The position numbers and the translations under genes were made by a program. The notes under the pieces were generated by a model. The model saw nothing but the letters and a program-made list of their open reading frames with translations, searched no databases and had not been told where the DNA came from. From a virus (taxonomy: Duplodnaviria; Caudoviricetes): a stretch of 54,289 nucleotides of DNA. Where the stretch lies: IMG/VR virus record IMGVR_UViG_3300027917_000056, positions 1-54,289 of that record, one strand, 5' to 3'. Position 1 is the stretch's first letter. Each line of letters opens with the position of its first letter. Below, in pieces: positions 10,606-50,340 of this stretch.

Positions 10606-10803
10606 CGACAATTTATTCCTCTTTTTGGCCTTATCTTTTTGCTGGATAAGATATGCAAGTTGATCTCTTTTTCTAATTCCAGCATTTAGAATAGATACTT
10701 CTGTTCCATATCCAATGTTGTAATAACCAAGAAATCCATGAGTAGTAAAACCATGTCTTTTACACGCTTCATCGAATTGCTTTTTGCTTATGTCTCTTCC
10801 CAT
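10594..10803 (-). CDS. hypothetical protein
   Basis: ORF overlapping the int stop; GGAGGG RBS. Confidence 0.55.
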   Translation of the reverse strand: MGRDISKKQFDEACKRHGFTTHGFLGYYNIGYGTEVSILNAGIRKRDQLAYLIQQKDKAKKRNKLSDHT

Positions 10804-11840
10804 GATTTTCCCTCCCTTTTGATTTTCAATGGTTCCTCCAGAAACCTAGCCGTCTCCAAGTCCGGACCACGTAATTGTCTCATGTATCGGTCTGTCGTAG
10901 TGGACCGCTCATGACCCAACTGCCGACGTACTTGTTCCAAGGACGCCCCACGAGAGAGCATCAGGTGACTAGCAAAATGTCTCAACGCGTGCCAGTTGAA
11001 TCGCTTGATACCAGCCTTGTCGCAAAGATAGGGCAGGGTCATTCCCATCTTCACGTACCTTTTGCCGTGCTCGTCGGTCCAAAGCCAAGTATTTCGCTTT
11101 CGTGACTTTAGAAACTGGAAATTGGTCATCAAGTCGTCGGTAATGGCCAGAGGCCTCGGAACTAGATGTCCGCCCTTGGCTTTACGATGATATACGGTGA
11201 ATATCCTTCGAGAAAGATCCACGTCCTTCCACTGCATATTGAGCATTTCACCCTTTCTGATACCTGTTTTCGTAACCATATCAATCATCTGCGTAACTGT
11301 TGGACTGGCCAACATACGAATCTTGAGCACATCTTCAGCAGGCGGGACGTATGGGATGGATTTTTCCTCGGGTAGACCCTTGACCTTACGGATAGGATTA
11401 AAGGGTATGAGTTCCTCGGATTCTGCGAAATTGAGTACGATCTTCCAAAATTCCAAGTTCCGATTGACAGTCTTGCGGGAAGCTTGCAGATCCCACTCTC
11501 TAAGCTGTTTTCGGGCAAAAGCGGGGGTCATCTCTGTGACGTTCTTTTTGTGCAGACCTTGAAAATATCGCCTACCACGAGACAGTACCCAAGACAGGTG
11601 TGCATCACTTGTGGCTCGCTTGCAGTGGTCTGTGTAGGCGTTAAGGACAGTCAAGAAATCCGTGGCGATTTGGGTCTTCTGAGTTAGACCTGCAAGTTCC
11701 CGCCTTTTTAATACCTCGGCCTCCTGTGCGTCTTCCCGGGTGTCGTATCCGTGGCCCTGATAAAGCTGACCGGCCCTCGTAAACCTGTAAAACCACTGCC
11801 TTTTCTTCTTCCTCTTGTCCTTGTATTGGGCTGCTACCAT
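10788..11840 (-). CDS. int: tyrosine recombinase (phage integrase)
   Basis: TGIRKGE (R), HALRH, LGH and TDRY catalytic set; N-terminal arm-binding-like WFYRF segment; ATG 11840 follows GGAGGGAGG. Confidence 0.93.
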   Translation of the reverse strand: MVAAQYKDKRKKKRQWFYRFTRAGQLYQGHGYDTREDAQEAEVLKRRELAGLTQKTQIATDFLTVLNAYTDHCKRATSDAHLSWVLSRGRRYFQGLHKKNVTEMTPAFARKQLREWDLQASRKTVNRNLEFWKIVLNFAESEELIPFNPIRKVKGLPEEKSIPYVPPAEDVLKIRMLASPTVTQMIDMVTKTGIRKGEMLNMQWKDVDLSRRIFTVYHRKAKGGHLVPRPLAITDDLMTNFQFLKSRKRNTWLWTDEHGKRYVKMGMTLPYLCDKAGIKRFNWHALRHFASHLMLSRGASLEQVRRQLGHERSTTTDRYMRQLRGPDLETARFLEEPLKIKREGKSWEET

Positions 11841-12045
11841 CAATGCCTCCCTCCAGCATTTGATGGACTCTGAGCATATCAATACGTAGGTCTCCTAATG
11901 CTTTCGTACCGATTTTCCACTTCCGCCAGTTCCGATAAAGCCGATCTTTCGGGCAGTTAAGCACTCTCGCGGCTTCCGTAACTGTCAAAAACCGATCTTT
12001 AAAAGAGGCGTTTTTTTGATCAATCTTTTCTGGACCCATATCCAA
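11641..12045 (-). CDS. excisionase-like HTH protein (C-terminal tail overlaps int by about 200 bp)
   Basis: FLTVTEAARVLNCPKDRLYRNW motif; directly upstream of int. Confidence 0.65.
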   Translation of the reverse strand: MDMGPEKIDQKNASFKDRFLTVTEAARVLNCPKDRLYRNWRKWKIGTKALGDLRIDMLRVHQMLEGGIDGSSPIQGQEEEEKAVVLQVYEGRSALSGPRIRHPGRRTGGRGIKKAGTCRSNSEDPNRHGFLDCP

Positions 12046-13491: not shown

Positions 13492-16400
13492 TCAGTTCTC
13501 TGGATCTATAACCATTTCCTCATGTATGTCTGGATCTATGGCCATCTCCGAATGTATATCCACCTCAATATCCACCCTTTGAGCCATCCAGCTAATTGAA
13601 CTCGTGCAGCTAGAGCTTGACTTCGAGCACTCGCTAGAACTCGACCAACTGGACTCGCATGACAGACTCGAAAAACTGGACCAAGAACTTGCACAGGACA
13701 GGCATGAGGAGGATGGGCTAGAGATGGACGACAGGCTGCTCAGAGAACTGGTACAGGAGAGGCTTGAAAAACTGGATGCGGAGCACATGGACTCCGAAGA
13801 CCAGGACGAGAGGGACGAGAGCGAGGAGAGGGACGAGGCACAGGAGAGGCTCGACCAGCTAGACTCAGAGCACACCGACTCCGAGGACTGGGAACTTTCG
13901 CAAGAGAGGCTCGAAAGGCTTGACTCGGAGCATACGCTCTCCGATGACCGGGAACTTTCGCAGGATAGACTGGAAAGGCTAGAGTGGGACGACTCGGAGC
14001 AGATACTTTCCGAGGACTGGGAACTCAGGCTGCTATGGGAGGAAAGGCTGGAGTGGCTTGACTCGGAGCAAACCGACTCAGAAGAGAGGCTGGAGGCACA
14101 ACTCAGGGACGACAGGCTTGACTCAGAACACACGGATTCTGAGGACCAGGAGGACAGACAACTGAACGATGAAAGGCTGGAAGGTGAAGATTTGCTCTCC
14201 TGGCTAGATGAACTAAAACTCGACTCACAAGACCAGCTCGACTCAGAGCATACACTCTCGGATGAGAGGGAAGAACGGGAACTGGCGCAGCTATGGCTTG
14301 ACAGTGAAGATTCAGAGCAGATTGATTCTGAAGATAGTGAACTCTGGCAACTCAGCGAGCTATAACTCGACTCCGAGCATACCGACTCGGATGAAAGGCT
14401 GGACAGGCTGGACGTACAGGATAGACTGGACAGGCTCGACTCGGAACATACGGACTCTGAGGACCAGGAGCTCGCACAACTCAGAGATGAGAGGCTGGAA
14501 AATGAGGATTCCGAGCAAATTGATTCGGACGATATTGAGCTGGGGCTACTCAGGGACGAGGGGCTGGAGAAGGACGAGGTACAGCTCTGCGAGGACAAAC
14601 TTGATAGCGAGGACTCCGAGCATACCGATTCTGAAGACCAGGAACTCAGGCACGAGAGACTTGAAAGCGAAGATTCCGAGCATATCGACTCCGATGACCA
14701 GGAAGAAATGCAGCTCAGGCTCGACAAGCTGGAAGGTGAAGATTTGCTCTCCTGACTGGAGGAGCTAAAACTCGACTCACAAGATAGACTAGACTCGGAA
14801 CATATACTCTCCGAAGAGAAGGACGAGACACAGGATAGACTTGACCAACTGGACTCGGAGCACACCGACTCCGAGGACCAAGAACTCAGGCAACTTGTGG
14901 ATGAGAGACTCGACAAACTGGATTCGGAGCATACCGATTCCGAGGACAGCGAAGAATGGGAGGATAGACTTGAAAAACTCGATGTAGAGCACACCGACTC
15001 TGAGGACAGCGAAGAACGGGAGCTGATGCAGCTATAGCTTGATAACGAAGATTCCGAGCAGACAGACTCCGAACTCCAAGAACTTGCACATGAGAGGCTT
15101 GACAGTGATGACTCAGAGCAAATCGATTCGGAAGAATACGAAGATAGCGATGAAATGCAGCTAAAACTTGACAACGAAGATTCCGAGCAGACAGACTCTG
15201 AAGATTCAGAAGAAGTGCATGACAGGGACGAATAACTGGACGCCGAGCAGACCGACTCCGAGGACTGCGAGCTGGTACAACTTAACGAGGACAGACTGGA
15301 CGTGGAGGAGGCTGACTCAACAGATTCCGAAGACCAAGAGGAAATGCAAGAGGCACTGGAGGTGCTGGATTCGGATGAGGTTGAAGATTCCGAAGAGTAG
15401 GAAGAGGTGGAACTTACCGAGGAGGTTGAGCTGTAGGATTCCCAATCGCAAACATCTACCAGAACATTGTCGAAGTACGCCGTATAGCCTTTGGTATCAC
15501 CAAACCAGTCGTGGGAACCAAGGTCTATAGCCTTAAAATTCTCACTGTGTGTACCGCCAAGGGTTCCTTCTGAAGTAATTGGGTATTCAGTGTCTACATT
15601 GTTTATTTGATCGACATTGTTTATTCGCCATGCCCACTCATTTGTTGAAGATAACCACTTCACTTGAATTACATAACGCTTATCCTCAACAACTGTTACA
15701 TTTGTATCCCTGTTATCCCTGACGGTCTTACTCTGGGAGTAGTCCCATACCCTGAAGATGACCTTGCTTCCATCATGCCAAATGACAAGACCCCAGAGAT
15801 ACCCCCCAGCATTGTCCGTTATAAGGCCGACGGTTGCTTGATCCCCACTGATAAATTCTGACAGATCAGTAAAAATCACCTCAAAACTATAATAGAAATC
15901 GGCTAAGTCAAATTGCCCAGTATTAAAAGCATTGGTTAATTCATTATCAGGAGCAATTATCTTTAGACATTCACTACCCCACCCAGGCGGACTGCCCACA
16001 TCTGCTGGATCAGCATTCTCGTCAATCGTTCCTGTTGTTAGGTTTTCCAACCAACCCGATTCATCGTACCCAGGAGTGCTTGTGTATTCGAATCGTTCTG
16101 TGAAAGTATCACACTGCAAGGAGCTGGAAGACTCGGACGACTGGCAGGAGACCGATGACTCGGAAGAATAGGACGAGGTACAGGAGGTCGAGGAGGTCGA
16201 GGAATAGGAGGAGACACAAGAGTAAGAGGAGGTCGAGCAGACAGACTCCGAAGAAGCCGATGAGGTACAACTCAACGAGGAGTAACTTGACTCCGAGCAT
16301 ACACTCTCCGAGGAACGGGAGGAAACGCAAGACAAGGACGAGAGGCTGGAAAGTGAAGAAGCCGAGCACAGGCTTTCGGAAGACCAGGACGAGAGACAAC

Positions 16401-18435
16401 TCAAACTCGATGGACTGGATTCGGAACAAACTGACTCGGATGACAGTGACGAGAATGACGAGGCACTACTATGAGATGACAGGCTAGAGGTTGAACAAAC
16501 TGACTCGGACGATAGTGACGAGAGACTGGAGAAACACGACCCTGAACTTTCTGAGCTTAGGCTACTCCAACTGGATTCCGAGCAGATAGATTCTGACGAC
16601 TCAGATGAGATGCACGAAAAACTGGAAAGACTGGACTGGCTGGATACACTGAGAATTGATTCGGGCCACCATACAATACTCTCCCGGTCCCTCCAAATGA
16701 TGCTCTCCCGATCTCTCCATACAATGCTCTCAGCAATGGCACCACTATACGATGAATAACTTGACAAGCTGGAAGTTGAGCATACACTCTCCGAGGACAT
16801 GGAACTTTGACACGAGGGGCTGGAGAGACTCGATTCCGAACAGACACTCTCCGAGGATGCGGAGGATAGGCTACTTAAGGATGATGGGCTAGATTCAGAG
16901 CACACACTCTCAGAAGAATATGAGGATAGGGAACTGAGACTGGACAGGCTAGACCAGCTCGACTCAGAACACACGCTCTCGGATGACTCGGAAGAATGGG
17001 ACGAGGTACAGCTCAGAGATGATAGGCTAGATTCTGAGCAGATCGATTCTGATGAGAGTGAGCTCTCGCAACTCAGGGATGACAGGCTGGAAACCGAGCA
17101 CACAGACTCTGAAGATTGGCTCGAACCTGAGGAAATCGACGATGTGCATGACATACTGGACGCTGACGAATACGAAGAGAACTCCACCGTAACGTCATCA
17201 ATAACCGTGGTTTCATTCCCCAGAGCCAGTGCAATCCACTTGCGCTCCGTTGCGCTTGCGGTTGTATAGTTGAGTGTCCATCCATCAGAATCCATGCTGA
17301 CAAAATCAGCGGCATGTATAAGAGTGCCATCGTTCTCATGCAAATATACGGCTCTATTTTCACAGCCAGATTGTGTATCACTAGTGTCCTGATCGTCTTC
17401 GTCTGCAATAGCGTGGCAATATTCACCTCCGTAATGGTCAAAGACGGATATACCAAAAACTCCAGAATATACACCAGTGGCTAAATAGTCGTATGCAGTT
17501 AGAGACGCAAGACCCTGCATCACGAAGATAGGCTTAAAACCAACACCAGTTTGTGAGTCGTCACCAGTGGAAGTTGGCGGCTGTGTTTGTAAGACCTTCT
17601 TATAATCAGAGCCAATGTCTAAGGCAAGATAGAACACATACTGAGATGCAGAATCACCTCCCCTTGTGTATATATCGAATCCATTTGAATTAAAGTTATC
17701 GAGTTCTGCGGTATACGGAGAAGCATCATTAAAAGTCTGATCGTAAATTCTGCCAGGACTGGTTGTGGCTCTTGTGTTGTTTATCGTGGTGTCTTCTGCG
17801 TCCTTTGCGCTGTGCTGCAAGACCATTTGTGAATCAGAGCCGTCATCCACTGCAAAGGCAAGGCCTAGAGTGGCATTAGCTATATATCCGGGTGTATCCA
17901 CTGCCGGATATAGTATGTTACCACAGATAACGACATCTGGTCTGAACCCAACATTAACAGATACATAGCTGTCTTGTGTAGCATGTATAGCTATGTTACC
18001 GACTGCTACGTTATTCAAACCACTAAAGAATACAGCAGTTACCAACGTACCAGCTACATAAGTAGCGTGGGTCGCATCCCAACTAATTCTCACGCCGTCG
18101 GTAATACCGGAATCATAACTCGCAGCGGCCTTCCATTGCCCAGTGCCATCACTGATGGATATACAAGAACTATCTATCGATTGCCGGTAAGTATCACTTG
18201 TACCTTGACCATGCTCTGCATCGATAGTCAAAGACCACTCATTGCTGCCCATGTCCGTGACGCCATAGCCTATGCTGGCATGATCTACCGTACCGTCAGC
18301 GGTAAGCGTATCCTTACCCCAAATAAACAAGACAGCATCAGGAGTGCCAAAACCAGAGATCGTGACATCCTGGGTTCCAGTGGCACCCCCACCCTTATTT
18401 GTAGCAAACCGGGTTATTTTGACATCAATGGCCAT
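13492..18435 (-). CDS. giant Ser/Cys-rich repeat protein (1647 aa), putative virion fibre/adhesin
   Basis: Triplicated N-terminal beta domain; Ser-rich tract (~17180-16120); ConA-like central domain (FTERFE...YFDNV); second tract (~15440-13590). Confidence 0.8.
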   Translation of the reverse strand: MAIDVKITRFATNKGGGATGTQDVTISGFGTPDAVLFIWGKDTLTADGTVDHASIGYGVTDMGSNEWSLTIDAEHGQGTSDTYRQSIDSSCISISDGTGQWKAAASYDSGITDGVRISWDATHATYVAGTLVTAVFFSGLNNVAVGNIAIHATQDSYVSVNVGFRPDVVICGNILYPAVDTPGYIANATLGLAFAVDDGSDSQMVLQHSAKDAEDTTINNTRATTSPGRIYDQTFNDASPYTAELDNFNSNGFDIYTRGGDSASQYVFYLALDIGSDYKKVLQTQPPTSTGDDSQTGVGFKPIFVMQGLASLTAYDYLATGVYSGVFGISVFDHYGGEYCHAIADEDDQDTSDTQSGCENRAVYLHENDGTLIHAADFVSMDSDGWTLNYTTASATERKWIALALGNETTVIDDVTVEFSSYSSASSMSCTSSISSGSSQSSESVCSVSSLSSLSCESSLSSESICSESSLSSLSCTSSHSSESSESVCSESSWSSLSSLSSLSSYSSESVCSESSPSSLSSLSSASSESVCSESSLSSPSCQSSMSSESVCSTSSLSSYSSYSGAIAESIVWRDRESIIWRDRESIVWWPESILSVSSQSSLSSFSCISSESSESICSESSWSSLSSESSGSCFSSLSSLSSESVCSTSSLSSHSSASSFSSLSSESVCSESSPSSLSCLSSWSSESLCSASSLSSLSSLSCVSSRSSESVCSESSYSSLSCTSSASSESVCSTSSYSCVSSYSSTSSTSCTSSYSSESSVSCQSSESSSSLQCDTFTERFEYTSTPGYDESGWLENLTTGTIDENADPADVGSPPGWGSECLKIIAPDNELTNAFNTGQFDLADFYYSFEVIFTDLSEFISGDQATVGLITDNAGGYLWGLVIWHDGSKVIFRVWDYSQSKTVRDNRDTNVTVVEDKRYVIQVKWLSSTNEWAWRINNVDQINNVDTEYPITSEGTLGGTHSENFKAIDLGSHDWFGDTKGYTAYFDNVLVDVCDWESYSSTSSVSSTSSYSSESSTSSESSTSSASCISSWSSESVESASSTSSLSSLSCTSSQSSESVCSASSYSSLSCTSSESSESVCSESSLSSFSCISSLSSYSSESICSESSLSSLSCASSWSSESVCSESSLSSYSCISSRSSLSSESVCSTSSFSSLSSHSSLSSESVCSESSLSSLSSTSCLSSWSSESVCSESSWSSLSCVSSFSSESICSESSLSCESSFSSSSQESKSSPSSLSSLSCISSWSSESICSESSLSSLSCLSSWSSESVCSESSLSSLSSQSCTSSFSSPSSLSSPSSISSESICSESSFSSLSSLSCASSWSSESVCSESSLSSLSCTSSLSSLSSESVCSESSYSSLSCQSSLSSESICSESSLSSHSCASSRSSLSSESVCSESSWSCESSFSSSSQESKSSPSSLSSFSCLSSWSSESVCSESSLSSLSCASSLSSESVCSESSHSSLSSHSSLSSQSSESICSESSHSSLSSLSCESSRSSESVCSESSLSSLSCESSQSSESVCSESSWSSLSCASSLSSLSSLSSWSSESMCSASSFSSLSCTSSLSSLSSISSPSSSCLSCASSWSSFSSLSCESSWSSSSECSKSSSSCTSSISWMAQRVDIEVDIHSEMAIDPDIHEEMVIDPEN
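13590..15440 (-). repeat. coding tandem repeat with a 17/20/23-aa unit, e.g. SSLSSLSCASSWSSESVCSE
   Basis: SSES(V/I)CSE recurs throughout; DNA copies are synonymously diverged. Confidence 0.95.
16120..17180 (-). repeat. first Ser/Cys-rich repeat tract of the 1647-aa protein
   Basis: Same unit, interrupted by three ESI(V/I)W copies (16660-16735). Confidence 0.9.
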
Positions 18436-18757: not shown

Positions 18758-19885
18758 TTACTTGACCAGACGTATCTTTATAAATCCGGTACTTGTGAAC
18801 TTTGTTCCGTACTCATGCCAAGTGTCAGCCTCACAGTTTGCTGCCGTAGTGCCAGTTTTGTAGTAGATCGTCGGAGTTGGACCACTTCCACCACCACCAT
18901 ATTTATCAAGGCTGACTACTACCACACCAGAGCCCAAATACCATGTCTCAGATATTCCCTCATCTGAAACTACCAACAGAGAAAGAGTCTCTCCGTCCCC
19001 AGAGCCACTAACCACTCCGTCACCCGTCCAATGATCTGAAAAGGTTCTCTTGTGGTCCTCTGCTACTGCCGTACTATGACCCCAGCAGACTGTACCGATT
19101 ATCTGAGAAGAATATGAGGACCAAGACGAAAGGCAACTCAGACTAGACAGGCTGGACTCCGAACACACGGACTCCGAAGATTGGGAGGAAAGGCTAGAGG
19201 TACTGCTCAGGGACGATAGGCTCGACTCGGAGCAGACGGACTCGGAAGATTGGGATGAGGTACTGCTCAGGGACGATAGGCTAGATTCTGAGCATACGCT
19301 CTCGGAAGAGAGGGACGAATATGAAGACGTACTCGAAAAACTTGACTCGGACGACAGAGAGGATAGGGAGGACAGGGACGACAGGGACGATAAGGACGAC
19401 AGCGAGGACTCGGAACTCTCCTCCAAAGTACCGACTGTGCGAACGTCCCATATGCGAATATCTACAGGATCGGCAGGACCGATTAGGTCAAAAGTAATTC
19501 TTACTTGTAGTTGGGAAAGATCCTGACTTGCTGAGAGGGTTTCTGTTACGGTTTCTGCGGTTGTGGCACGGTTGGCGGAATCGTTTGAGTAATTTCCTTG
19601 CGGAGTGTTAGTAATTTTGTTCCATGCACCACCGCCATTTGTAGAAAACTCAATACACCACTTGTCGTTACCAGTTCCAACATCCGTGGACCACTTGACA
19701 TACAAGGTAAGGGCTGAGTATGAGGCGGAGGCCGCAGCCCAGTTGTAAAAGCGTATAGCAGGAGTATAGTCGTTATCAATATTGTCATAGCCATAATCCG
19801 CGTCATTAGCATTGTAACACTGCGTCGGATTGGTCCACCCGCTACTGTCCGCATGACTCTGTGGTCTTCTGATTTCGTCGGCCAA
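18758..19885 (-). CDS. Ser/Cys-rich repeat protein with two beta-rich domains joined by the same repeat
   Basis: Tract 19105-19420 (SSESVCSESSLSSL) with 60-bp DNA periodicity; TTG start with GAGGGAG RBS. Confidence 0.8.
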   Translation of the reverse strand: MADEIRRPQSHADSSGWTNPTQCYNANDADYGYDNIDNDYTPAIRFYNWAAASASYSALTLYVKWSTDVGTGNDKWCIEFSTNGGGAWNKITNTPQGNYSNDSANRATTAETVTETLSASQDLSQLQVRITFDLIGPADPVDIRIWDVRTVGTLEESSESSLSSLSSLSSLSSLSSLSSESSFSSTSSYSSLSSESVCSESSLSSLSSTSSQSSESVCSESSLSSLSSTSSLSSQSSESVCSESSLSSLSCLSSWSSYSSQIIGTVCWGHSTAVAEDHKRTFSDHWTGDGVVSGSGDGETLSLLVVSDEGISETWYLGSGVVVVSLDKYGGGGSGPTPTIYYKTGTTAANCEADTWHEYGTKFTSTGFIKIRLVK

Positions 19886-20033: not shown

Positions 20034-21506
20034 TCACTGTATCGTACCTCCAGATACAGAAGTGCCAAAAATATTTGTCAGCCCTTCATATTCATATGCG
20101 CCGATGTCCCAATCAGAACCCTGGGGTCTAGTAACAAGATCTGGAACAGGCCAAGTAGCATTCATACCAATACCAATAGTAAAATACGAACTCAATGATG
20201 TCCCGGCATTTATAGTTGGTGCCGTTGATTGAGGAAAAAGAATTGAGCAGGGAGTATGTAATTGAGGATCTGTGCCTGTCACGGTATAGGTACCGGTTGA
20301 ATAATCGGACCCGCTGATGATATTGCCAGATTCTCCACTGCCAGCATTATAGAAATAATTGTAATCGTCCGTAACATTAGCCATGTCTTCGCTAGAACAA
20401 TCCTCGTACACACAATACACATAACCATTAGCGTCCGTATCTTCGACTCGAATGATATTATTTTTGATCTCTACATAACCAGTCGAATATGATCCAGTAA
20501 CAAATCCCAACCCGGCTTTCATCAACTCACTACTTGTATCGGAACCTTTCATACAGATCGTATTATTGTAAATTCTAACTGGAGTTCCGCTGGATGCACC
20601 AGGCTGATGAATTCGAATCACAAGCCGCCAATCGGCTTTGCTGGCAGATGTGTTTTTTGTTGTAGTGAAAATATTATTGTACACTTGTAGATCTTCAACA
20701 TTATATACGCCTTCCGAACCCTCAATATCTATGCCAGATACATAATTAGCCCCTGCAAAAAAGTTATTATATACTCTCACTCCAGATAAATCGCTATTGG
20801 AAGATCCTCTAACAATAACATCTGACTTCTCTGCATTTGCTTCCAAATAATTGCCATATATTTCACTATTATCAGCACCCTCTTGAACAAAAATACAATT
20901 CGATGCGTCATTCATATTGGCAATATAGTTATATCGTATTATCGTGGATGCCGCATCCGTCCAGACTCCATGTTCACCATATCCACCTATTGCGTTAGTA
21001 ATGGTATTACTATCTATAACACTACCACTACCACCGCCCACATATATACCTGGACCATCATAATTGTTTATAGTACAATTAGAAATTGTAGACGCTATCT
21101 CTATTTGTATAATCGGGTCAGATGTAGTCCTTGCACCAGAACTTGTAAAAGCCAATGAATCTATTAGCATACCTCCACTATCGATACGGAAACCATCACC
21201 AGACCCAGAGGCAGTTATGGTGCAACTATTCCCAGACCATAATTGTAGCGTAACATTCTTCGAAATATCCCAATAGAAAGTTCCGGATATGGTTTCTGAG
21301 CCCTTGATATTGATAATATCACCACTTGCGTTACATCCAGAATCACATCCTGTTTTCATGTTTGATAGAGTATTCCATGGATCACCCATGCTTCCATCCC
21401 CATTGGAAACCGCATCAAGATCACAATACCAAGTCGATGCACATACATTTGATATGAAAATCCAATATAAAAGTAAAAAGGAATATCTAATCAAACATTT
21501 ACTCAT
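20034..21506 (-). CDS. right-handed parallel beta-helix protein (pectate-lyase-like fold) with a signal peptide
   Basis: Hydrophobic N-terminus; GDGSMGDPW; repeated I.NN.I / VYNN units; C-terminal INAG...RPQG..WDIGAYEY. Confidence 0.75.
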   Translation of the reverse strand: MSKCLIRYSFLLLYWIFISNVCASTWYCDLDAVSNGDGSMGDPWNTLSNMKTGCDSGCNASGDIINIKGSETISGTFYWDISKNVTLQLWSGNSCTITASGSGDGFRIDSGGMLIDSLAFTSSGARTTSDPIIQIEIASTISNCTINNYDGPGIYVGGGSGSVIDSNTITNAIGGYGEHGVWTDAASTIIRYNYIANMNDASNCIFVQEGADNSEIYGNYLEANAEKSDVIVRGSSNSDLSGVRVYNNFFAGANYVSGIDIEGSEGVYNVEDLQVYNNIFTTTKNTSASKADWRLVIRIHQPGASSGTPVRIYNNTICMKGSDTSSELMKAGLGFVTGSYSTGYVEIKNNIIRVEDTDANGYVYCVYEDCSSEDMANVTDDYNYFYNAGSGESGNIISGSDYSTGTYTVTGTDPQLHTPCSILFPQSTAPTINAGTSLSSYFTIGIGMNATWPVPDLVTRPQGSDWDIGAYEYEGLTNIFGTSVSGGTIQ

Positions 21507-21509
21507 ATT

Positions 21510-22253
21510 TCACCTCGGGTCAGAATCATCGAATATGAAATCATCTAAATCGATAAGCAAACTTGTATCACTTACGGTAGCCGTTGTAGTAACACCAAAC
21601 TCTATTTCATCAACACCATTATAACTAGAAGTATTCAAGGAGTTAGAATTGCCAGTGCCTGATTGCCAAGATCCATCGTAAACAAACAACTGAACAGCGC
21701 CATCCGAAACTCCTATCTTGTAATGGACTGCAATCGGATATTCTGTTGCAGTAGAAATGTCAGCAGGATAATAATATGGATTCGTCCCTTGTGCTGAGAC
21801 CATGCGAAAACCCCGCCAGTTTTGACTGGCATTTGAAATCGCACGAACACTATATTGCAGAACATCAGAATTATCAAAAGTCTCTACATGATAGATATAT
21901 TTATCAGCTCCTAATGAACCTTCTCGATTAGCCTCCCAAGTAAAATATATCCAACTATCTGTTTGATCACCCCCCAAATCCTCTTCAATCCAAGCTCCAG
22001 ATGTACTGTTATAAGTAATACGCATCTGATTGTTCAATATACTAATAGTTGATGTTCCCTCCTCTGTCTCGGAATCCCAAGGCCCTCCAACAGTTGCACT
22101 ATTACTACGGTTGAAATCATCCGAAAAAACATAAGCAGGTGCCTCCATAGCTCCACCTACAATCACTGGATTGATCCACGCCTCGGACTCCGTACAACCT
22201 GAAACCAACGGTATGCAAAGGAAAGCCAAGATAAATATGTATGTTGATTTCAT
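21510..22253 (-). CDS. ConA-like beta-sandwich protein with a signal or lipoprotein-like N-terminus
   Basis: MKSTYIFILAFLCIPLVSGC (lipobox-like); FSDDFN...DLDDF; GAGGAGG RBS before 22253. Confidence 0.65.
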   Translation of the reverse strand: MKSTYIFILAFLCIPLVSGCTESEAWINPVIVGGAMEAPAYVFSDDFNRSNSATVGGPWDSETEEGTSTISILNNQMRITYNSTSGAWIEEDLGGDQTDSWIYFTWEANREGSLGADKYIYHVETFDNSDVLQYSVRAISNASQNWRGFRMVSAQGTNPYYYPADISTATEYPIAVHYKIGVSDGAVQLFVYDGSWQSGTGNSNSLNTSSYNGVDEIEFGVTTTATVSDTSLLIDLDDFIFDDSDPR

Positions 22254-22273
22254 GTGTCCATCCTCCTCATTTT

Positions 22274-23440
22274 CTAATCTCCCACCGTGGTTGTATATTC
22301 CATCTTCATACCCAAGAAGTGCAAAGTAGCTACTGCCGTGGTTGTACCGCCTGCATCTAACTGCACTCTCCACCACAGACTATCCCCAGCCGCACAGGTA
22401 CCTGCACAAGTTACGACATCGGAGGTTGTATGATCCACTCCATTTGAACCTGTTACGTTCGTATCGTCTATAGCCACCTCCGATCCCCATGTGGAACTTG
22501 GCACTTCTGTAGCCCCTCGACATTGACAACAAACATCAGAATGCAGAGCTGCCGTATCCGCAGCAGTTTGCAAATATTCCAATTCAAAAGTCACAGTACC
22601 AGCATTCCACGAATCAGGCATGATAATGTGTCCATACATGGATGAGCCGTCATTATCAGCACATTTTATCGTGTACTGTACAGGTCCAGAGTTTATGGTC
22701 ACTTTTGCAGGATTAGCGCACTGTGTACCATCGGCCACAATACCGGCTCCAGACCAAAAGGCAGATGTAACGATATTGTCCAATACACAGGCATCCTCCC
22801 CCGAACACGTAAAATCTCCAAAATCTTCACTCTGCAAATCTTCGTCACCGACAAGTCCTGTAGCCGTAAAAGCACTTGAAACGGTAGCTCCGGCAGTGGC
22901 ATTAAAAGGCTTTATGCTATCAACTGTCTCGGAAACACCGTCAAGCTCCACATAAGTCTGATTTTCTCCCCCACTATCCTCCACACCTAAATACATAATA
23001 ATGTCGTTCGTACCACCCGAACTATTCGCATAGACTTTTCCGGTGCCCGCATCATTGTCTGAATCCCTGAGTGTAACTGTAGGATCTGCACTTGGTAAGG
23101 AACTCAAATCGTCCCCATTGACATTAAGTAATACCCAACGGCAATTTGCTCCACAAGTACCGTCCGTATCAACATCTATTATCTGTGGACATGGCGATTC
23201 GCTGGTTTCACTGGCTCCGGAGTCTGCGTCCAAGACATATACACAGAAATCCCCGTCAGTGGTTACGACAAATCCACCGTCCCCATCTGCCAAGTTGTTT
23301 CCACTTATGCCGTCCAGGGAAGTGCTTGTGCCGCCAGTCAACGAATCCGCAGGCCAAAAACTGATCGTAGCCATAGCCGGAACAGCCAATAAGATACAAG
23401 CAAAAATGGCAATTATCTTACTCATCCATAGTTTTTTCAT
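22274..23440 (-). CDS. acidic beta-rich protein with a Sec-type signal peptide
   Basis: MKKLWMSKIIAIFACILLAVPAMA; C-terminal MPDSWNAGTV...AGDSLWWRV domain. Confidence 0.7.
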   Translation of the reverse strand: MKKLWMSKIIAIFACILLAVPAMATISFWPADSLTGGTSTSLDGISGNNLADGDGGFVVTTDGDFCVYVLDADSGASETSESPCPQIIDVDTDGTCGANCRWVLLNVNGDDLSSLPSADPTVTLRDSDNDAGTGKVYANSSGGTNDIIMYLGVEDSGGENQTYVELDGVSETVDSIKPFNATAGATVSSAFTATGLVGDEDLQSEDFGDFTCSGEDACVLDNIVTSAFWSGAGIVADGTQCANPAKVTINSGPVQYTIKCADNDGSSMYGHIIMPDSWNAGTVTFELEYLQTAADTAALHSDVCCQCRGATEVPSSTWGSEVAIDDTNVTGSNGVDHTTSDVVTCAGTCAAGDSLWWRVQLDAGGTTTAVATLHFLGMKMEYTTTVGD

Positions 23441-23594
23441 TGCTCTCAAATCTCCATTTGATGTTTGGATTGTCTTGCCATACTGCCGGCTGATCGTCAT
23501 ACATGATTTTCTCTGATATGCTGCATATGCCCAAAAAAGCAATGATCCCGGCAATGACTCCACCAAAGATAACTAATACGATCTTATTGATCAT
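23418..23594 (-). CDS. 58-aa single-TM membrane protein (not in the ORF track)
   Basis: MINKIVLVIFGGVIAGIIAFLGICSISEK...; ATGA-coupled to the upstream GT gene. Confidence 0.55.
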   Translation of the reverse strand: MINKIVLVIFGGVIAGIIAFLGICSISEKIMYDDQPAVWQDNPNIKWRFESNEKTMDE

Positions 23595-24430
23595 ATACTT
23601 GCACCCTCCCTGTTGTCTGATATAGGGTGATTCTCCGGCTTGTACCCGCCCTTTGTAGCCCGTCCCTCCTGGATAGCTTGCTCAAGTTCACGCATCTTTT
23701 TTGGGTTTCGTGGCAACTTGTGGAACAGCCTTTTTTTGTCTTCCTTCGCATGGGGAAAGGCATACATCAGTGGACCTACCCGATGCCGTTCTATTGGCTT
23801 TGAATCTCCACGGTCGATCTGCTCCCTTCTTAGATTTCCATAACGCATATGAAAATCCGAGTCTCCACCGTATTGCCCGTAATATTTAGTCTGATACCCG
23901 CCGAGTTCCAAGTAGATCCACCGACGAATGAGATAGATGTCTTGCACTCCGAAATACTTCTCCTCTTCTCCTGGATAGGCTCCATATTCGTATAGGATCT
24001 CGGGCTCCCTCCTGAGTTGGCCCTCCGCATCCAACACGGCGTACTTACGTGGGAAGTGCATCTTGTCTCCGTCATAAACCACAGCAGCTTCGAATACCTC
24101 TTTAGGCATGATATGATCGATAGCAGTCATGAGCACATATTCTGATTCTGCTCTTTCAACTCCTAAATTCATGGCTAATTGCTGTGTCCAACAGATATTT
24201 GATCCTGTAGGAATGACCCGAAAATTAAAATGTATCTTATCTTTCATGGCCCAGAACAGCTTATGTAATGGAGGCATGGAGTTGTCATCTACCACATGAA
24301 TCATAACTTGTTCCCGTAGTTTATCATCTAACTCAAATATAGAAGACCAAAACAAAATCTGTCTTCTTAAAACTTCATGAGAATCCAGTGTTGGTACTAT
24401 CATCGTGACTTTAGGCTGCGGCACGTCCAT
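23591..24430 (-). CDS. GT-A glycosyltransferase (GT2/GT7-like), paralog 2
   Basis: VTMIVP, VVDDNS, AMNLGVERAE and YLELGGY...GGDSDF motifs. Confidence 0.8.
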   Translation of the reverse strand: MDVPQPKVTMIVPTLDSHEVLRRQILFWSSIFELDDKLREQVMIHVVDDNSMPPLHKLFWAMKDKIHFNFRVIPTGSNICWTQQLAMNLGVERAESEYVLMTAIDHIMPKEVFEAAVVYDGDKMHFPRKYAVLDAEGQLRREPEILYEYGAYPGEEEKYFGVQDIYLIRRWIYLELGGYQTKYYGQYGGDSDFHMRYGNLRREQIDRGDSKPIERHRVGPLMYAFPHAKEDKKRLFHKLPRNPKKMRELEQAIQEGRATKGGYKPENHPISDNREGASI

Positions 24431-25304
24431 ATCCTCCTTTTCTGGCCTTTCCTGCTCGTATTTGTTCAGTCAATTCTTTGATATGTCCACCTTTTCTGGG
24501 CATTTTGTGAAACAGCCCGAGCGGATTCGACATACTCCCAGCGAAACAATGGGTCATCGGTCCCCTCTTGTGCCTACCTATCTTCTCCAGCATTCGTCTC
24601 CTGAAATACGCATACTCCCAGTGGAACTCCACATCCCCAAAGTAATGTCCAAAGTGCCTCGGGTTGTATCCACCTATCTCTAGATATATCCACCTTTTCA
24701 TAGCGTACTGGTCTTGTGCGTCTGGGAGTTTCACTCTATCCGATGGTTTCCATCCATACTGAACCAAAGTGTCGTGGTCTATGAGAATGTCCCCTTGCTC
24801 GTCCAGGACTCCCCAAGCCCTACGAAATTGCATCTTGTCCCCTTGGAAATCGGCCACAGCACGAAAAGCTTCCTTGGACACCATATGATCAATGGCCGTG
24901 TGCAGAACGTATCGGCCTTCGGCTCTCTCTGCGCCCATATTGGCCCCAAGCATCTGTGTCCATGGGATCTCGCTCTCCGTGCGAAACACCACATAGTCGA
25001 AATTGACTGCCCTACGATTCTCCTCAAACACGCTCTCCAGGGGAGGGTCGGACATATCGTCCGCCACTACGATCTGACACCGACCCTTTAGGTCCTGATC
25101 GTCCGAGAATACGTGCTTGGACCAAAACAAAATCTGCCTCCTCAGGACCTCATGCGAGTCCAGCACGGACATGACCAGGGAAACATCATACCGATACTCA
25201 CGACTCCTTTCTCTATCCAGCCTCTCCTCCGCCTCCTTCTCGGTGAATCGGGGCAGATGCGGTTGTTTCATGTACGGCAATAGTTTATCCAGATTGTACA
25301 GCAA
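24411..25304 (-). CDS. GT-A glycosyltransferase (GT2/GT7-like), paralog 1
   Basis: VSLVM, VVADDMS, ANMGAERAEG and YLEIGGY...GDVEF motifs; shares LDSHEVLRRQILFWS with its neighbour. Confidence 0.8.
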   Translation of the reverse strand: MLYNLDKLLPYMKQPHLPRFTEKEAEERLDRERSREYRYDVSLVMSVLDSHEVLRRQILFWSKHVFSDDQDLKGRCQIVVADDMSDPPLESVFEENRRAVNFDYVVFRTESEIPWTQMLGANMGAERAEGRYVLHTAIDHMVSKEAFRAVADFQGDKMQFRRAWGVLDEQGDILIDHDTLVQYGWKPSDRVKLPDAQDQYAMKRWIYLEIGGYNPRHFGHYFGDVEFHWEYAYFRRRMLEKIGRHKRGPMTHCFAGSMSNPLGLFHKMPRKGGHIKELTEQIRAGKARKGGYGRAAA

Positions 25305-26022
25305 CTTTCTTTACCTCTTCTCTTCTAACATATCCGAGCTTGCCCCTACGGGCAGACTCAAAATCCCAGAAGTGGACCTTGTGCCCAGCATCCAGCCCGT
25401 ACTTTCTGGCATGACGGACATGAACTCCTTGAAAATGGTAGATACCGCAGTTGTAATGCCGAAGTCCCAGCGGAACCTTTCCCTGATTGTGGCTCCCGTC
25501 GTTCAACGGATCGTACCAGAACCCGGTGTGCGGACCCATGCCCTTAAGAACATTGCCTGTATTGTGCTTATCCTCTTGGTCCTTGGAATGTTCGCACTCG
25601 CACACATAGTCCAGCATGTAATCCAGAAACTTTTTCGAACAGTAGATTCCCCGCCCGTGCATCCTTCCATTGGCCTCCTCCTCTTTTACGTCCCGAAACA
25701 CGTATGCCTGATCGCAAGCCAGGTCCGCAATACCGTCGAACGTGGTCGGGTCCTTCATTATGATGTCGTCGTGCATGAAGAACACAGGGGACTCTCGGTC
25801 CCAGAAGTTCTTTAAATAATAGTCGTACCCACCGAACTCCAACCCTGCTACCGGGATGATTTCATGCCTCAGACCGTGAGATTTGACCAACCCGATTCCT
25901 TCTAAAGCCTGGGCAACCCGACCTGCATAGGTAACGAAACACACAGGATACCTCCGACTGGCTTTGGCTAATACTGGAATAAGCTCCGGGAAAAAATACC
26001 AACCACTCACGCAAATCTTCAT
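25285..26022 (-). CDS. putative GT-A-like glycosyltransferase
   Basis: GLEFGGY and FFMHDDI metal-binding-like motif; cluster context. Confidence 0.5.
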   Translation of the reverse strand: MKICVSGWYFFPELIPVLAKASRRYPVCFVTYAGRVAQALEGIGLVKSHGLRHEIIPVAGLEFGGYDYYLKNFWDRESPVFFMHDDIIMKDPTTFDGIADLACDQAYVFRDVKEEEANGRMHGRGIYCSKKFLDYMLDYVCECEHSKDQEDKHNTGNVLKGMGPHTGFWYDPLNDGSHNQGKVPLGLRHYNCGIYHFQGVHVRHARKYGLDAGHKVHFWDFESARRGKLGYVRREEVKKVAVQSG

Positions 26023-27083
26023 CACAGAAACTCCTTGTGGTGTTTTGGCTGCTTTACTTGCCACAAGATTTCATTGAAGTTATCAGCCCTACAAAGCAAG
26101 GGACATTTGCTCAAGTCTATGTTCTCCGTCACCTCTTTCCTTCTGCGACTATTCCATATCACCGCCAGAGGGTCCTTGTGAATGTTACCGAGGGAACACT
26201 CCATCAATCCCCGAGTGTGACAACAAATGGTCAGGTCTCCAGTAGCTTGAATCGCAGTAGCAAACTGATGCCCATAGCATTTGTCATAAGTCCGTATAAT
26301 CTCCCCATCCTCGTTTCTTGGCCTGGAGTTGATTACCTTGTACTTATGAGTAGAATTCACTATACGGGTTCTCTCGTTTCCCATAGTCTCCAACTCTGAA
26401 AAATCTACAGGAGAGAACTCGTGCAGGTCTGCTTTGGCATAAGTATCTGTTCCTAAAAAAGGTCGGAACTGTGCATAATCCGCTCCAGCCCATACGGATT
26501 CCCGGACGAATTGTTTCATATCTTCAAGGTCATAAGTTCCTTTTCCAGTCAAATATCCCGTGCCGATGGTTACGTCCGAATTAGTCCTATCCTTTTCATC
26601 GACCAATAATCTCAACCCTTCCACTACTCTGAAGAAATCATCAACTCCATGTGTTCTGCGATGTTGTTCTGGAGAACCAGCATCCATGGATACCCGTATC
26701 CACTGGCAAGAGCCGACAAGAACTTTAGCTACATTTCCGTCAATCAATGACCCGTTCGTGATAAATCCAACTGGGATTTGTAGAGCATGACGTATAAAGT
26801 GTACCGTTCCCAGAGTATCTTGGTTACATAATGGCTCACCACCTCCAGTAAAGATAATTCCCCGAACTCCAAGTACGGCAGCTTGACATACAATTCTACG
26901 CATCGTGTATCCATCCAGACTTGCATCATTTGGTACTGCAAATCCGCAACAGCCCGGACATTTGTGATTGCATATGTTCGTGGGGTCTAGTTCCATAGTC
27001 ACAGCAAACGGGTTTTTGCCTTCTAGCCATTCCACCACCCGATCTAGATGATTGTATATCTTATCTGTCTGAAATGGGTTCAT
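26022..27083 (-). CDS. radical SAM enzyme with a SPASM/twitch domain
   Basis: CNHKCPGC (CxxxCxxC), TGGGEPL, ITNG; C-terminal CYGH...GDLTICC...CPLLC. Confidence 0.92.
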   Translation of the reverse strand: MNPFQTDKIYNHLDRVVEWLEGKNPFAVTMELDPTNICNHKCPGCCGFAVPNDASLDGYTMRRIVCQAAVLGVRGIIFTGGGEPLCNQDTLGTVHFIRHALQIPVGFITNGSLIDGNVAKVLVGSCQWIRVSMDAGSPEQHRRTHGVDDFFRVVEGLRLLVDEKDRTNSDVTIGTGYLTGKGTYDLEDMKQFVRESVWAGADYAQFRPFLGTDTYAKADLHEFSPVDFSELETMGNERTRIVNSTHKYKVINSRPRNEDGEIIRTYDKCYGHQFATAIQATGDLTICCHTRGLMECSLGNIHKDPLAVIWNSRRRKEVTENIDLSKCPLLCRADNFNEILWQVKQPKHHKEFL

Positions 27084-27949
27084 TGAACCCTCTCTCCCGT
27101 TTTTAGCAGATGCTCATTGTATCGATCTATACGGGCCTGTACCCGCGGAAAATGTTTACAGGGCAATATGTAACCATTGCTTGCATCTACGTGATAGTGG
27201 TAATGCAGGATGATAGGATCACATTCTTTTAAATACGGATTCGGAGTTCGTCCCTGCTTTGATCTAGCAGCAATATGCAAGGGATAGTTCATATTCGCTC
27301 CGAGTTCGTTATACGGCACGGGCGATGTACAGTAGGACAGGGTTAGGCTGGCCTGATCATAGAACTTATGTCTGGAATTGATGATACTAGGTTCTCCGGT
27401 TATCATAAGACCATATTCTCGCCACCTAGAGACGATAGGCTCAAGAACGTCATGGGAGAAAATAAGCACACCCGAGTTGGGATACCAAATCGTAGCGGCT
27501 CTGTTACACGTACAGTTGTATTTTCTTTCAGGAAGTTCCAAACCAAGCCGACTGAACAGGCTCACGAAGGCGTCATGCGATACGGTTGGCATATCAGCGA
27601 TTTTGGCCTGGAGTCCTTCGCGGAAGACATATTCTGACGGATCATCCACGATCAGGGTATCGCAGTCCAACAGAACGATCCGGTCATAGAGGGAACCGTC
27701 AAAGTTTTTAAAGAACTGAATCTTGTTCGTATATGGAAACTTATGGCTAAAACGATCCACAATATGGAGAGAAGCTCCAAGTCGAGTCAATTTTTCTCCG
27801 ACAGATGACTCTATATTCTCTACAAAACATACCCGAACTTCGGCATCTGCCAGCTTTCCACCAAACCACCGAAGAGATTGTACAAGTCTAGGAACCTGAG
27901 ACAAATACTTCGGGTTATTATCAGCCACACATCCAAACAAAACATTCAT
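27080..27949 (-). CDS. GT8-like glycosyltransferase
   Basis: NKIQFF, LLDCDT (DxD), NSGV, DQASL and LHYH motifs. Confidence 0.7.
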   Translation of the reverse strand: MNVLFGCVADNNPKYLSQVPRLVQSLRWFGGKLADAEVRVCFVENIESSVGEKLTRLGASLHIVDRFSHKFPYTNKIQFFKNFDGSLYDRIVLLDCDTLIVDDPSEYVFREGLQAKIADMPTVSHDAFVSLFSRLGLELPERKYNCTCNRAATIWYPNSGVLIFSHDVLEPIVSRWREYGLMITGEPSIINSRHKFYDQASLTLSYCTSPVPYNELGANMNYPLHIAARSKQGRTPNPYLKECDPIILHYHYHVDASNGYILPCKHFPRVQARIDRYNEHLLKTGERVQ

Positions 27950-28596
27950 ATTAAATCCTCCTCTTTTTTCAGAACCATACCAACCACACGGATTTTCCTC
28001 TCGTTTCTCCACGGACACTGTTCGTACCGTTGCAAGACGAATCCAATCCCTCGAAGTTCCCTCAACATCAGGGAAAGATCCCCATGCACGAAATCTGGTT
28101 CGACACGTACACTACGGCAGGCATTCCACAAGCAAAACCCATCTTCTTTGAGATCGACCGTAAGTATGAGACTGCCTTCAGACTTAAGAATCCTATGAAA
28201 CTCTCTCCACGCATCCATTCTCATGGAAGCCTTTATATGCTCGATCACACTCAGACAGATCACGGTATCAAACTGTCCGTCCTTTGCCCAAGACAACTTA
28301 GTAAAATCCATGTTGTGACTGACAATTCCAGAAGCAACCGTACCGTAATCGAAAAACCCCCACTGCTTGGACTTATCTCCACGACTGCCGTGATCTACCG
28401 TAATGACACTAGCTCCGTTTTCTGCCAAGAAAAGAGGAAGGGGCGATTTTCCAGCCCCAGCATCCAATACAGACAACCCAGACGGAGGACCAAGAGCATC
28501 GGCTACCCACGTATTTTCCCAAGGTCGATAGAAATTGACCTCCGGAAATCCAAAACAACGTTCATAAAGTTCACTAAAACGAGAGTTCTCTTTCAT
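27946..28596 (-). CDS. class I SAM-dependent methyltransferase
   Basis: VLDAGAG, FDTVICLSVIEHI and ILKSEG motifs. Confidence 0.85.
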   Translation of the reverse strand: MKENSRFSELYERCFGFPEVNFYRPWENTWVADALGPPSGLSVLDAGAGKSPLPLFLAENGASVITVDHGSRGDKSKQWGFFDYGTVASGIVSHNMDFTKLSWAKDGQFDTVICLSVIEHIKASMRMDAWREFHRILKSEGSLILTVDLKEDGFCLWNACRSVRVEPDFVHGDLSLMLRELRGIGFVLQRYEQCPWRNERKIRVVGMVLKKEEDLI

Positions 28597-30019: not shown

Positions 30020-30609
30020 TCTCCCTCCGGCACATCTGCCACAATTCTGGCCGGTGAGCCCATCACCACTTTCCTCGGTGGGACATTTCGAGTCACAACC
30101 GACCCAGCAGCCACAACTGAATTCTCTCCCACAATTACCCCAGGCAAAATAATTGCACCGGAGCCTATACGGACTGCACTTTCAATTTTGCACGGATCTT
30201 CTTGGTAATTCATCACCTCTCGACGAAGATGACATATCCGACGGTCATTGGAAGTCATTACACCTTGAGCCATAAAAACCTTGTCTCCGAGATGAACTCC
30301 TCTAGTGACATGACATTGACTCTGAATTACACAATCACTACCGATAGAAGAATCCCCTTCAAAAACCACAGAATGCCCTATCTTTGTTCTATCTCCGATC
30401 TTCGTCCTCGGTCTCATCACCGTACCATTTCCTACAAGCACATCGTCTCCTAAAACACAGCCGTCCTCAATCACCACAAAACTCCCCAACTGCACGTTCC
30501 TCCCGAACATGACGGTCGGGTATATGGTCCAGTTCGACCATGTGAGGTTCACATGGTGCAGGTGCAACTTCAGGTAGTCGTGCATCGACATTCTCGGCTC
30601 GTTCGACAT
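30007..30609 (-). CDS. left-handed beta-helix (hexapeptide) sugar acetyltransferase
   Basis: Hexapeptide repeats; IGSGAIILPGVIVGENSVVAAGSVVTRNVP...GSPAR. Confidence 0.9.
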   Translation of the reverse strand: MSNEPRMSMHDYLKLHLHHVNLTWSNWTIYPTVMFGRNVQLGSFVVIEDGCVLGDDVLVGNGTVMRPRTKIGDRTKIGHSVVFEGDSSIGSDCVIQSQCHVTRGVHLGDKVFMAQGVMTSNDRRICHLRREVMNYQEDPCKIESAVRIGSGAIILPGVIVGENSVVAAGSVVTRNVPPRKVVMGSPARIVADVPEGEWLI

Positions 30610-50339: not shown

Positions 50340-50340
50340 A

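Follow-up and report, generated by a model that had tools for sequence, protein, structure and literature searches.

The window analysed here is the whole of IMG/VR virus record IMGVR_UViG_3300027917_000056 (54,289 bases, linear, about 65% complete according to CheckV), and PHROG and Pfam matches indicate that this uncultivated phage is temperate and siphovirus-like. Almost all long open reading frames (ORFs) of this window are on the minus strand, and the last gene of its structural block encodes a tail-associated protein of 1647 amino acids (aa) that contains three patterned serine tracts. This protein is the subject of the analysis, in particular its third and longest tract, T3, which corresponds to the span 13590-15440 singled out in an original prediction made from the sequence. 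The gene is laid out as follows.

13492..18435, minus strand: the 1647-aa gene, a single open frame, last gene of the minus-strand structural block, tail-associated, with three Ser tracts
17182..18435, minus strand: N-terminal globular domain, residues 1-418
16738..17181, minus strand: Ser tract T1, residues 419-566 (148 aa), with units of 20 and 23 residues
16648..16737, minus strand: short non-Ser insert of 30 residues seen in the translation, Trp/Arg/Glu-rich and containing a tandem repeat of 8 residues
16093..16647, minus strand: Ser tract T2, residues 597-781 (185 aa)
15448..16092, minus strand: middle globular domain, residues 782-996, predicted to be all-beta and possibly lectin-like
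13585..15447, minus strand: Ser tract T3, residues about 997-1617 (~620 aa)
13495..13584, minus strand: C-terminal acidic tail of 30 residues seen in the translation, containing His, with a 10-residue tandem repeat

The minus-strand frame is regarded as the real gene because it stays open over 1647 codons and links domains with homologues; a gene in another frame or on the other strand was considered and rejected, since plus-strand ORFs over the tract are fragments of at most 253 aa. Thirteen homologues of the N-terminal domain (E 2.5e-49 to 1.7e-5) are found among long proteins that resemble phage fibres; the domain has no Pfam match, no match among annotated phages and no relatives among viral contigs. 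Ser tracts were found in none of the seven relatives inspected; in one of these (P0006), Val/Thr/Glu repeats surround a domain that has relatives in a 926-aa tail protein described below. Searches with the middle domain returned neither a Pfam nor a PDB sequence match, and neither a homologue nor a relative among viral contigs. Tandem Repeats Finder (TRF) also reports that two of the non-Ser segments are encoded by in-frame DNA repeats: the acidic, His-containing decapeptide at the very C terminus is a 30-nt tandem repeat of 2 copies (13499..13557), and the Trp/Arg/Glu octapeptide between T1 and T2 is a 24-nt repeat of 2.6 copies (16669..16731).

The serine tracts follow a two-level grammar. 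The lower level is a Ser-Ser-X (SSX) triplet: when the autocorrelation of non-Ser positions was scored against 1000 composition-matched shuffles, a lag of 3 residues gave z=16.0 in T3, 8.7 in T1 and 8.8 in T2, which establishes the strict triplet grammar that the original prediction had described for this region. As it had also described, the third position varies, and X is L in 74 cases, E in 43, W in 16, Y in 13, F in 12, Q, P and T in 8 each, and H in 7. The upper level is a unit in which the SSX register breaks by +2 after each 4-7 triplets; lags of 20 and 23 residues in T3 gave z=16.8 and 17.1, and a count independent of any unit model found a shift of +2 in 39 of 42 phase changes between SSX runs and of +1 in the other three, in agreement with a predicted 2-residue phase break.

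When the tracts were cut after every S[VILM]CS. terminator, 34 intervals were obtained, 32 in the 1647-aa protein and two in a 375-aa neighbour. Fourteen intervals have 20 residues, 13 have 23, two have 29 and one has 35, so that 30 of the 34 obey a 3n+2 rule; the proposal of 3n+2 units of 17, 20 and 23 residues was therefore sound as to the rule and the dominant 20- and 23-mers, while no 17-mer was found. The expected ending, SSE-S(V/I)C-S(E/T/A), closes all 30 of these short units once L and M are also allowed at the V/I position. The remaining intervals comprise two of 40 residues with a second internal break and two that span globular inserts (66 and 330 residues). In the 1647-aa protein, a Ser-Lys-Ser-Ser punctuation also marks the place where T3 ends and both of the units with 40 residues.

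The composition of the tracts is also restricted. Ser accounts for 54-60% of residues, T3 contains 355 S, 54 L, 53 E and 50 C among 629 residues, and the ~953 tract residues together hold about 545 Ser, 24 Thr, 8 Pro, 3 Gly and no Asn. Charge is mostly carried by Glu, as anticipated (79 E vs 1 D, 3 K and 5 R). Cys occupies two fixed contexts, one within a triplet after Leu or an aromatic residue and the other as third residue of the terminator, where it stands 3 residues past one Glu and 2 residues ahead of another. A gap of 10 residues accounts for 27 of the 48 Cys gaps in T3 (with 13 in 8, 23 in 4 and 7 in 3), consistent with the earlier statement that Cys recurs about every 10 residues.

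The comparison of units indicates that constraint acts on the protein and that synonymous sites are nearly scrambled. Among the 20-mers (78 pairs), identity is 0.81 for residues and 0.58 for bases, and Ser-codon identity is 0.26 vs 0.18 expected from random draws; among the 23-mers (66 pairs), 78% of residues, 58% of bases and 25% of Ser codons are identical. All six Ser codons are used in T3 (TCC 91, TCG 69, TCT 51, AGC 49, AGT 48 and TCA 47). A recent tandem expansion of DNA was considered and ruled out by this base identity of 58% and by the sparseness of TRF arrays, which within T3 amount to two 60-nt arrays of ~2 copies plus two others with 9- and 18-nt units. In a very small sample of public contigs, no indels and 4 single-nucleotide polymorphisms were found, 3 of the latter being synonymous, including both of those located in tracts. 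The near-saturation of synonymous sites, the retention of the grammar in an independent contig (L009, see below), and the observation that neither E and D nor S and T are interchangeable in the tracts point to selection on the exact pattern. The view that this is not random low complexity is upheld, as the statistical signal of the grammar is very strong, the constraint lies on the protein, and that contig retains the pattern. It was also observed that Ser codon choice in T3 depends on position, with AGY codons making up 53 of 136 at the second SSX serine and 22 of 136 at the first; this could represent avoidance of DNA-level repeats.

Structure prediction assigned no fold to the tract. For a 149-residue piece, AlphaFold2 gave a mean predicted local distance difference test (pLDDT) score of 30.4, a predicted template modelling score of 0.21, scattered short strands and no residue (0/149) with a pLDDT of 50 or more, using a pseudo-alignment of 13 other pieces from the same protein as input. 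Low confidence of this kind is weak evidence, and an oligomeric, solenoid or modification-dependent fold would still be compatible with it. The original prediction had compared the tract to collagen and had offered a polyproline II (PPII) or solenoid fibre as its structure. A collagen-like helix is contradicted by the presence of only 3 Gly and 8 Pro in ~953 residues, and the monomer prediction, whose negative result is weak evidence, produced no PPII or solenoid fibre. A single-sequence AlphaFold2 model of the middle domain consists entirely of beta strands at low confidence (pLDDT 44), and all of its Foldseek matches are weaker than E 0.001 (best 8.7e-3). Many of the Foldseek rows are galectin, laminin-G, legume lectin, or the CBM2 of the distal tail protein (Dit) of phage J-1, which gives a hint that this modelled domain may be lectin-like.

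The grammar appears to be almost unique in the sequence collections searched. A profile of the unit, searched against 1,835,955,588 proteins, returned two weak and unrelated matches (P0016 and P0017) and no carrier, while at the same database size the profile matches the ORF of L009 with E 7e-19 and the 375-aa protein with E 2e-11. The better of the two matches, P0016, was rejected as a relative since it is a collagen-like phage fibre of Gly-X-Ser (Gly-aromatic-Ser) triplets without the SSX grammar, and P0017 (394 aa, E 5.9e-4) was rejected as a carrier since it has an Asp/Ser-rich 20-residue repeat with one Cys, also without that grammar. Each unit of P0017 has Val-Cys followed by acidic-Ser-Ser-Leu, loosely like the unit ends of the tracts, and this likeness may be due to convergence or to very distant kinship. 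An oyster protein named 'serine-rich adhesin' was dismissed at 22% identity over 6% of the query. Word-indexed protein searches found no other carrier (the tract-alone query covered proteins of 905-2883 aa), and the best score in the ESM Atlas, 0.81, is inside the stated noise of the tool.

At the DNA level, degenerate patterns of the terminator had 0 matches in IMG/VR viral contigs and three loci in metagenome contigs, namely L009, a true relative; L010, identical to the window; and L011, a chance match inside an open frame of the opposite strand. The sole match among genome contigs, L012, was likewise attributed to chance, as it lies inside a 633-aa opposite-strand frame. The first 285 nt of L010 (L010:1-3032) are 100% identical to a part of T3 (14549..14833) and are followed by unrelated sequence, in which the ORFs look archaeal by eye (for example, one resembles the RNA polymerase E'/Rpo7 subunit). 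L010 may have arisen through chimeric assembly at a contig end, or its junction may be genuine, and it says little about the host because the replication genes of the phage look bacterial.

The one true relative, L009, is a contig of 1283 nt in which the SSX period (z=7.2 and 7.8) persists along with the terminator and the +2 break; its units, of 35, 35 and 53 residues, all obey the 3n+2 rule, and Cys is frequently spaced by 10. A homologous tract lacking the register and the Cys spacing would have spoken against the proposed grammar, and L009 has both. Between its tracts lies a domain of the concanavalin-like lectin family Laminin_G_3 (Pfam E 1e-13). An orthologue of this domain is present in a viral contig, L014, with 153 of 223 residues identical (69%, E 1e-115); the similarity begins and ends exactly at the tract borders, and in L014 both flanks are Thr/Pro runs with Glu, a classic type of linker. 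These flanks show the Ser tract to be in a linker position and exchangeable for a Thr/Pro linker. The viral record that contains L014 (L014:5956-6834 and L016:805-2070) also has, ~3.9 kb upstream of the gene with the lectin-like domain, a 422-aa GT-B-like ORF that falls below Pfam cut-offs (PF00534, 19.1 vs 26.4 bits).

Within the window, Ser-rich runs of any length are limited to three ORFs, all in the structural gene block. The features outside the 1647-aa gene are given here in order of position.

10788..11882: integrase, accompanied by a replication initiator, a helicase and a Cas4-like exonuclease (PHROG)
18758..19885, minus strand: 375-aa neighbour upstream of the 1647-aa gene, with a tract at about 19076..19420 between two small unassigned domains
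20034..23566, minus strand: three consecutive genes with secretion signals, between the sugar-tailoring island and the tract genes
23591..33623, minus strand: sugar-tailoring island (Pfam, NCBIfam, PDB), between a tail-tip gene and the tract genes
26022..27083: radical S-adenosylmethionine (SAM)/SPASM enzyme within the island (Pfam)
35294..39841: Phage_tail_L-like protein and Phage-tail_3 protein (Pfam)
39838..42618, minus strand: 926-aa tail protein with a tail-tube-like N terminus, degenerate Ser/Cys tracts at about 40453..42105 and two paralogous beta domains
44079..47930: tape-measure-like ORF of 1283 aa
48679..49095: putative tail tube
49710..50925: head-tail adaptor and Neck1 protein (PHROG)
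50909..52994, minus strand: tandem pair of GT4-type glycosyltransferases (NCBIfam, PDB; PF00534 over cut-off), between methyltransferase and head-tail adaptor genes

The tract of the 375-aa protein consists of one 20-mer and one 23-mer (lag-3 z=8.6; unit-profile E 1.6e-11). The 926-aa protein, whose gene has the tape-measure gene on one side and those for the Phage_tail_L-like and Phage-tail_3 proteins on the other, has a more degenerate version, with a lag-3 z of 7.1, no signal at 20 or 23 residues and clustered Cys. Its N terminus is paralogous to the putative tail tube (E 8e-13), which has no Ser-rich end, and its two beta domains share 35% identity and are related to a domain in P0006 and P0005. 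The tracts of this protein contain dense Cys clusters in which Cys and Ser alternate or two Cys are adjacent, and Cys-Ser-Lys-Ser-Ser recurs after an acidic residue or Gln, two of the four copies closely preceding the beta domains. The tracts stand next to beta-rich domains, and the only one of these with an assigned fold, that of L009, is lectin-like.

Four public runs, which come from three studies and all carry the label marine sediment metagenome, contain the 1647-aa gene almost unchanged, and no RNA run is listed among them. This comparison used contigs, and the uncovered parts in runs X3 and X4 carry no evidential weight. The contigs of runs X1, X2 and X3 all depart from the window at 13420, which is 72 nt beyond the stop codon of the gene, and share one foreign continuation; possibly the left 13 kb, where the integrase gene and those for replication lie, has another junction in these populations, or else the record is a mosaic. 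A capsid gene is absent from this fragment, and no relatives of the Phage-tail_3 protein were found among viral contigs.

The record is also rich in genes for sugar transfer and modification. Besides the radical SAM/SPASM enzyme, the island encodes two GT2-like paralogues and an 867-aa protein of the GT1 family, together with four methyltransferases, one sulfotransferase and one hexapeptide acyltransferase. There are at least five glycosyltransferase-like soluble genes in the record, three of them above the Pfam cut-off (PF00534). None of the 28 ORFs checked has more than 2 hydrophobic segments, and no flippase- or polymerase-like membrane protein was seen among them, which suggests that sugars are transferred by soluble enzymes in the cytoplasm. 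Tandem pairs of GT4 homologues, at ~25% identity, are found in 147 actinophage records. The two GT4 genes match the GtfA model with E 1.5e-4 and 1.8e-5, below its cut-off of 574.6 bits, and many other GT4 families match at least as well. Of the three secretion-signal genes next to the island, one encodes a right-handed beta-helix protein (PF13229, E 8e-16), another a probable lipoprotein whose lipobox follows an internal Met, and the third a protein of 430 aa.

Known serine repeats resemble the phage tracts in part. Polyserine linkers are short, near-homopolymeric and without higher-order grammar, whereas the phage tracts extend to 148, 185 and 620 residues, have the triplet and unit grammar with periodic Cys, Glu, Leu and aromatic residues, and belong to virion proteins. 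One report, which lists linkers of 25 and 58 residues, describes polyserine linkers that separate modules in the carbohydrate depolymerases of a marine bacterium and are used there instead of Pro/Thr linkers (PMC2386152); an exchange of this kind is seen between L009 and L014. Like those linkers, the phage tracts are Ser-dominated spacers between carbohydrate-binding or lectin-like modules, and they lie between globular domains in four proteins, T3 being terminal. A second precedent is the Ser-Asp repeat stalk of staphylococcal adhesins, which is glycosylated on Ser by SdgA and SdgB and thereby shielded from proteolysis (PMC3794999). Both are long, acidic, strictly periodic Ser repeats, and the phage record contains a tandem GT4-type pair. 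The differences are that Ser-Asp stalks have a period of 2, no Cys and a place in cell-wall-anchored bacterial proteins, whereas the phage tract has a period of 3, 1 Asp vs 79 Glu, Cys and unit punctuation; in addition, the sequence similarity of the enzymes is generic to the GT4 class.

Gram-positive serine-rich repeat glycoproteins have Ser-X dipeptides, accessory Sec export and a cell-wall anchor; unlike them, the phage tract has a period of 3 rather than 2, the 1647-aa ORF has neither signal peptide nor cell-wall anchor, and no SecA2/SecY2-like gene turned up among the scanned ORFs. In Cluster O mycobacteriophages, capsid and tail-tube proteins are reportedly modified by tandem glycosyltransferases whose genes follow that of an O-methyltransferase (PMC11600133), and phage-encoded pairs of this kind act on structural proteins of mycobacteriophages (PMC11600133, PMC12619734). 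The order methyltransferase, glycosyltransferase, glycosyltransferase is similar in this record, where it lies beside the head-tail adaptor, but the mycobacteriophage glycans are on the C termini of capsid and tail-tube proteins and not on Ser tracts hundreds of residues long. Finally, the tracts share triplet periodicity with the collagen-like Gly-X-Y tail fibres of phages, but have Ser in two of three positions rather than Gly in one, almost no Pro, a +2 break every 20-23 residues in place of an uninterrupted register, and mostly L, E, W, Y or F in the third position. For a disulfide-braced beta-solenoid of the insect antifreeze type, the AlphaFold2 model offered scattered short strands and no solenoid, although this negative is weak.

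It is quite possible, if somewhat short of an even chance, that the tract is a protein-level repeat module that forms a long, acidic, non-globular stalk or tether in tail-associated, adhesin-like proteins and that is probably O-glycosylated by the soluble glycosyltransferases of the phage; that it is a stalk and not a folded domain is held with more confidence than the proposal as a whole. The proposed glycosylation draws on gene neighbourhood and on two precedents, SdgA/SdgB and the mycobacteriophage virions. A glycosylation target was already an option in the original prediction, and this option suits the gene context better than a collagen, PPII or solenoid fibre because of the several glycosyltransferase-like genes of the record and the Thr/Pro linkers of the L014 orthologue. 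According to this proposal, Ser hydroxyls would be O-glycosylated in the cytoplasm by the phage's own soluble enzymes, and the tract glycans might then be methylated, acetylated or sulfated. The glycosylated tract would form a stiff, protease-resistant bottle-brush that keeps binding modules far from the tail; since an extended chain measures ~0.3 nm per residue, 620 residues could reach a length of at most ~190 nm. Through the two Cys in every unit, periodic cross-links would form after the virion leaves the reducing cytoplasm.

Several points weigh against a glycosylated stalk. The sugar enzymes could modify host surface polymers or DNA, and the 20034..23566 region, from its predicted secretion signals, may be partly secreted or act on the host surface rather than in the virion. 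A passive linker needs no such precision as is seen in the choice of E over D (79 to 1), of S over T (~545 to 24) and of Leu or aromatic residues in third position. T3 joins no two domains, as only 30 residues follow it, and the low confidence of the AlphaFold2 model is no proof of disorder. In a record that is ~65% complete, enzymes that would alter the interpretation may be missing, and no relative with both tract and island was found, the only true relative being the 1.3-kb contig L009. A stalk leaves the precision of the grammar, its extreme length and the terminal position of T3 unaccounted for, and these three features disfavour a purely passive linker and keep alive explanations based on a fibre or on cross-linking.

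Among the alternatives, an unmodified flexible linker seems unlikely. According to this explanation, the grammar would be a trace of old unit duplications under mild selection for solubility, protease resistance or avoidance of recombination, and the Cys would have no special role. It is in keeping with the absence of a predicted fold, with the exchange of the tract for a Thr/Pro linker in L014, with the much more degenerate version in the 926-aa protein, and with the report that over a quarter of the carbohydrate depolymerases in one marine bacterium contain polyserine linkers (PMC2386152). Against it, synonymous sites are near saturation while residues remain ~80% identical, the terminator, the 10-residue Cys gap and the +2 break are all preserved in the independent contig L009, and E/D and S/T are not exchanged for one another. 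The same exactness of residue choice, too great for a passive linker, favours a self-assembling fibre that folds only as an oligomer, the main idea of the original prediction, in which an amphipathic PPII-type bundle or a beta-solenoid with one 20/23-residue unit per turn would have a core of Leu, Trp and Val and would use Cys as an inter-chain disulfide ladder or as metal sites. Bulky hydrophobic residues at a strict period of 3 and two Cys at fixed unit positions agree with such a fibre; solenoid coils have lengths that span 20-23 residues, and trimers are common among phage fibres. We nevertheless consider it decidedly improbable, given that the Gly and Pro counts exclude a collagen-type helix, that AlphaFold2 with the protein's own repeats as alignment left every residue below a pLDDT of 50, that the orthologous position in L014 is occupied by a Thr/Pro linker and no fibre motif, and that whole-triplet insertions (units of 20, 23, 29 and 35) are freely tolerated, which suits a linear chain better than a fixed coil.

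It is very doubtful that the tract is a substrate for enzymatic cross-linking, in which either the radical SAM/SPASM enzyme or a dehydratase/cyclase pair encoded off the fragment would link the unit Cys to nearby Glu or Ser, yielding a thioether-stapled structural protein by the chemistry of ribosomally synthesized and post-translationally modified peptides. The presence of the radical SAM/SPASM gene and the position of the terminator Cys between two Glu residues are compatible with this idea, as are weak NCBIfam matches of the enzyme to peptide maturases (sactipeptide, SCM-cassette), all far under cut-offs (best 60.6 bits vs 380 across NCBIfam). Yet the nearest solved relative of the enzyme is cytosylglucuronate decarboxylase, a sugar-nucleotide decarboxylase (E 5e-4), its gene lies among sugar-tailoring genes, and no peptide-recognition domain was detected. 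Moreover, no dehydratase or cyclase of the lanthipeptide type was found among the Pfam-scanned ORFs of this ~65%-complete record, in which ORFs at 1-12 kb and 44-54 kb were scanned against PHROGs or NCBIfam only, and no peptide-modifying radical SAM enzyme exceeded its cut-off.

Ser-rich stalks of bacterial adhesins and Ser-rich linkers of enzymes are already known, but a virion protein of which more than half is patterned Ser, with a two-level grammar and periodic Cys, was not met elsewhere. Full-text literature searches, judged from titles and the opening lines of abstracts, turned up no description of such a patterned Ser/Cys virion repeat, and the variant seen here, with its triplet grammar, 3n+2 units, periodic Cys and length of up to 620 residues in a virion protein, appears to be undescribed. 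A more far-reaching proposal, which we think rather unlikely as it stands, is that the tracts are a new class of structural repeat, a phage analogue of mucin, in which a ~10-kb island of glycosyl-, methyl-, acetyl- and sulfotransferases plus the radical SAM enzyme turns ~950 patterned-Ser residues into a glycan-coated, Cys-cross-linked whisker of up to ~0.2 micrometre that presents lectin-like modules, with the 20/23 grammar acting as a code for sequons and cross-links that the island enzymes read.

If the tract is indeed the substrate of the phage glycosylation island, it would offer a compact system for analysing how cytoplasmic O-glycosyltransferases recognize a sequon, as well as a system for virus-encoded mucin-like coats in sediments and for programmable long spacers. 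If it is instead a mere linker, it would illustrate that the sequence of a linker can be under strong, pattern-specific purifying selection.

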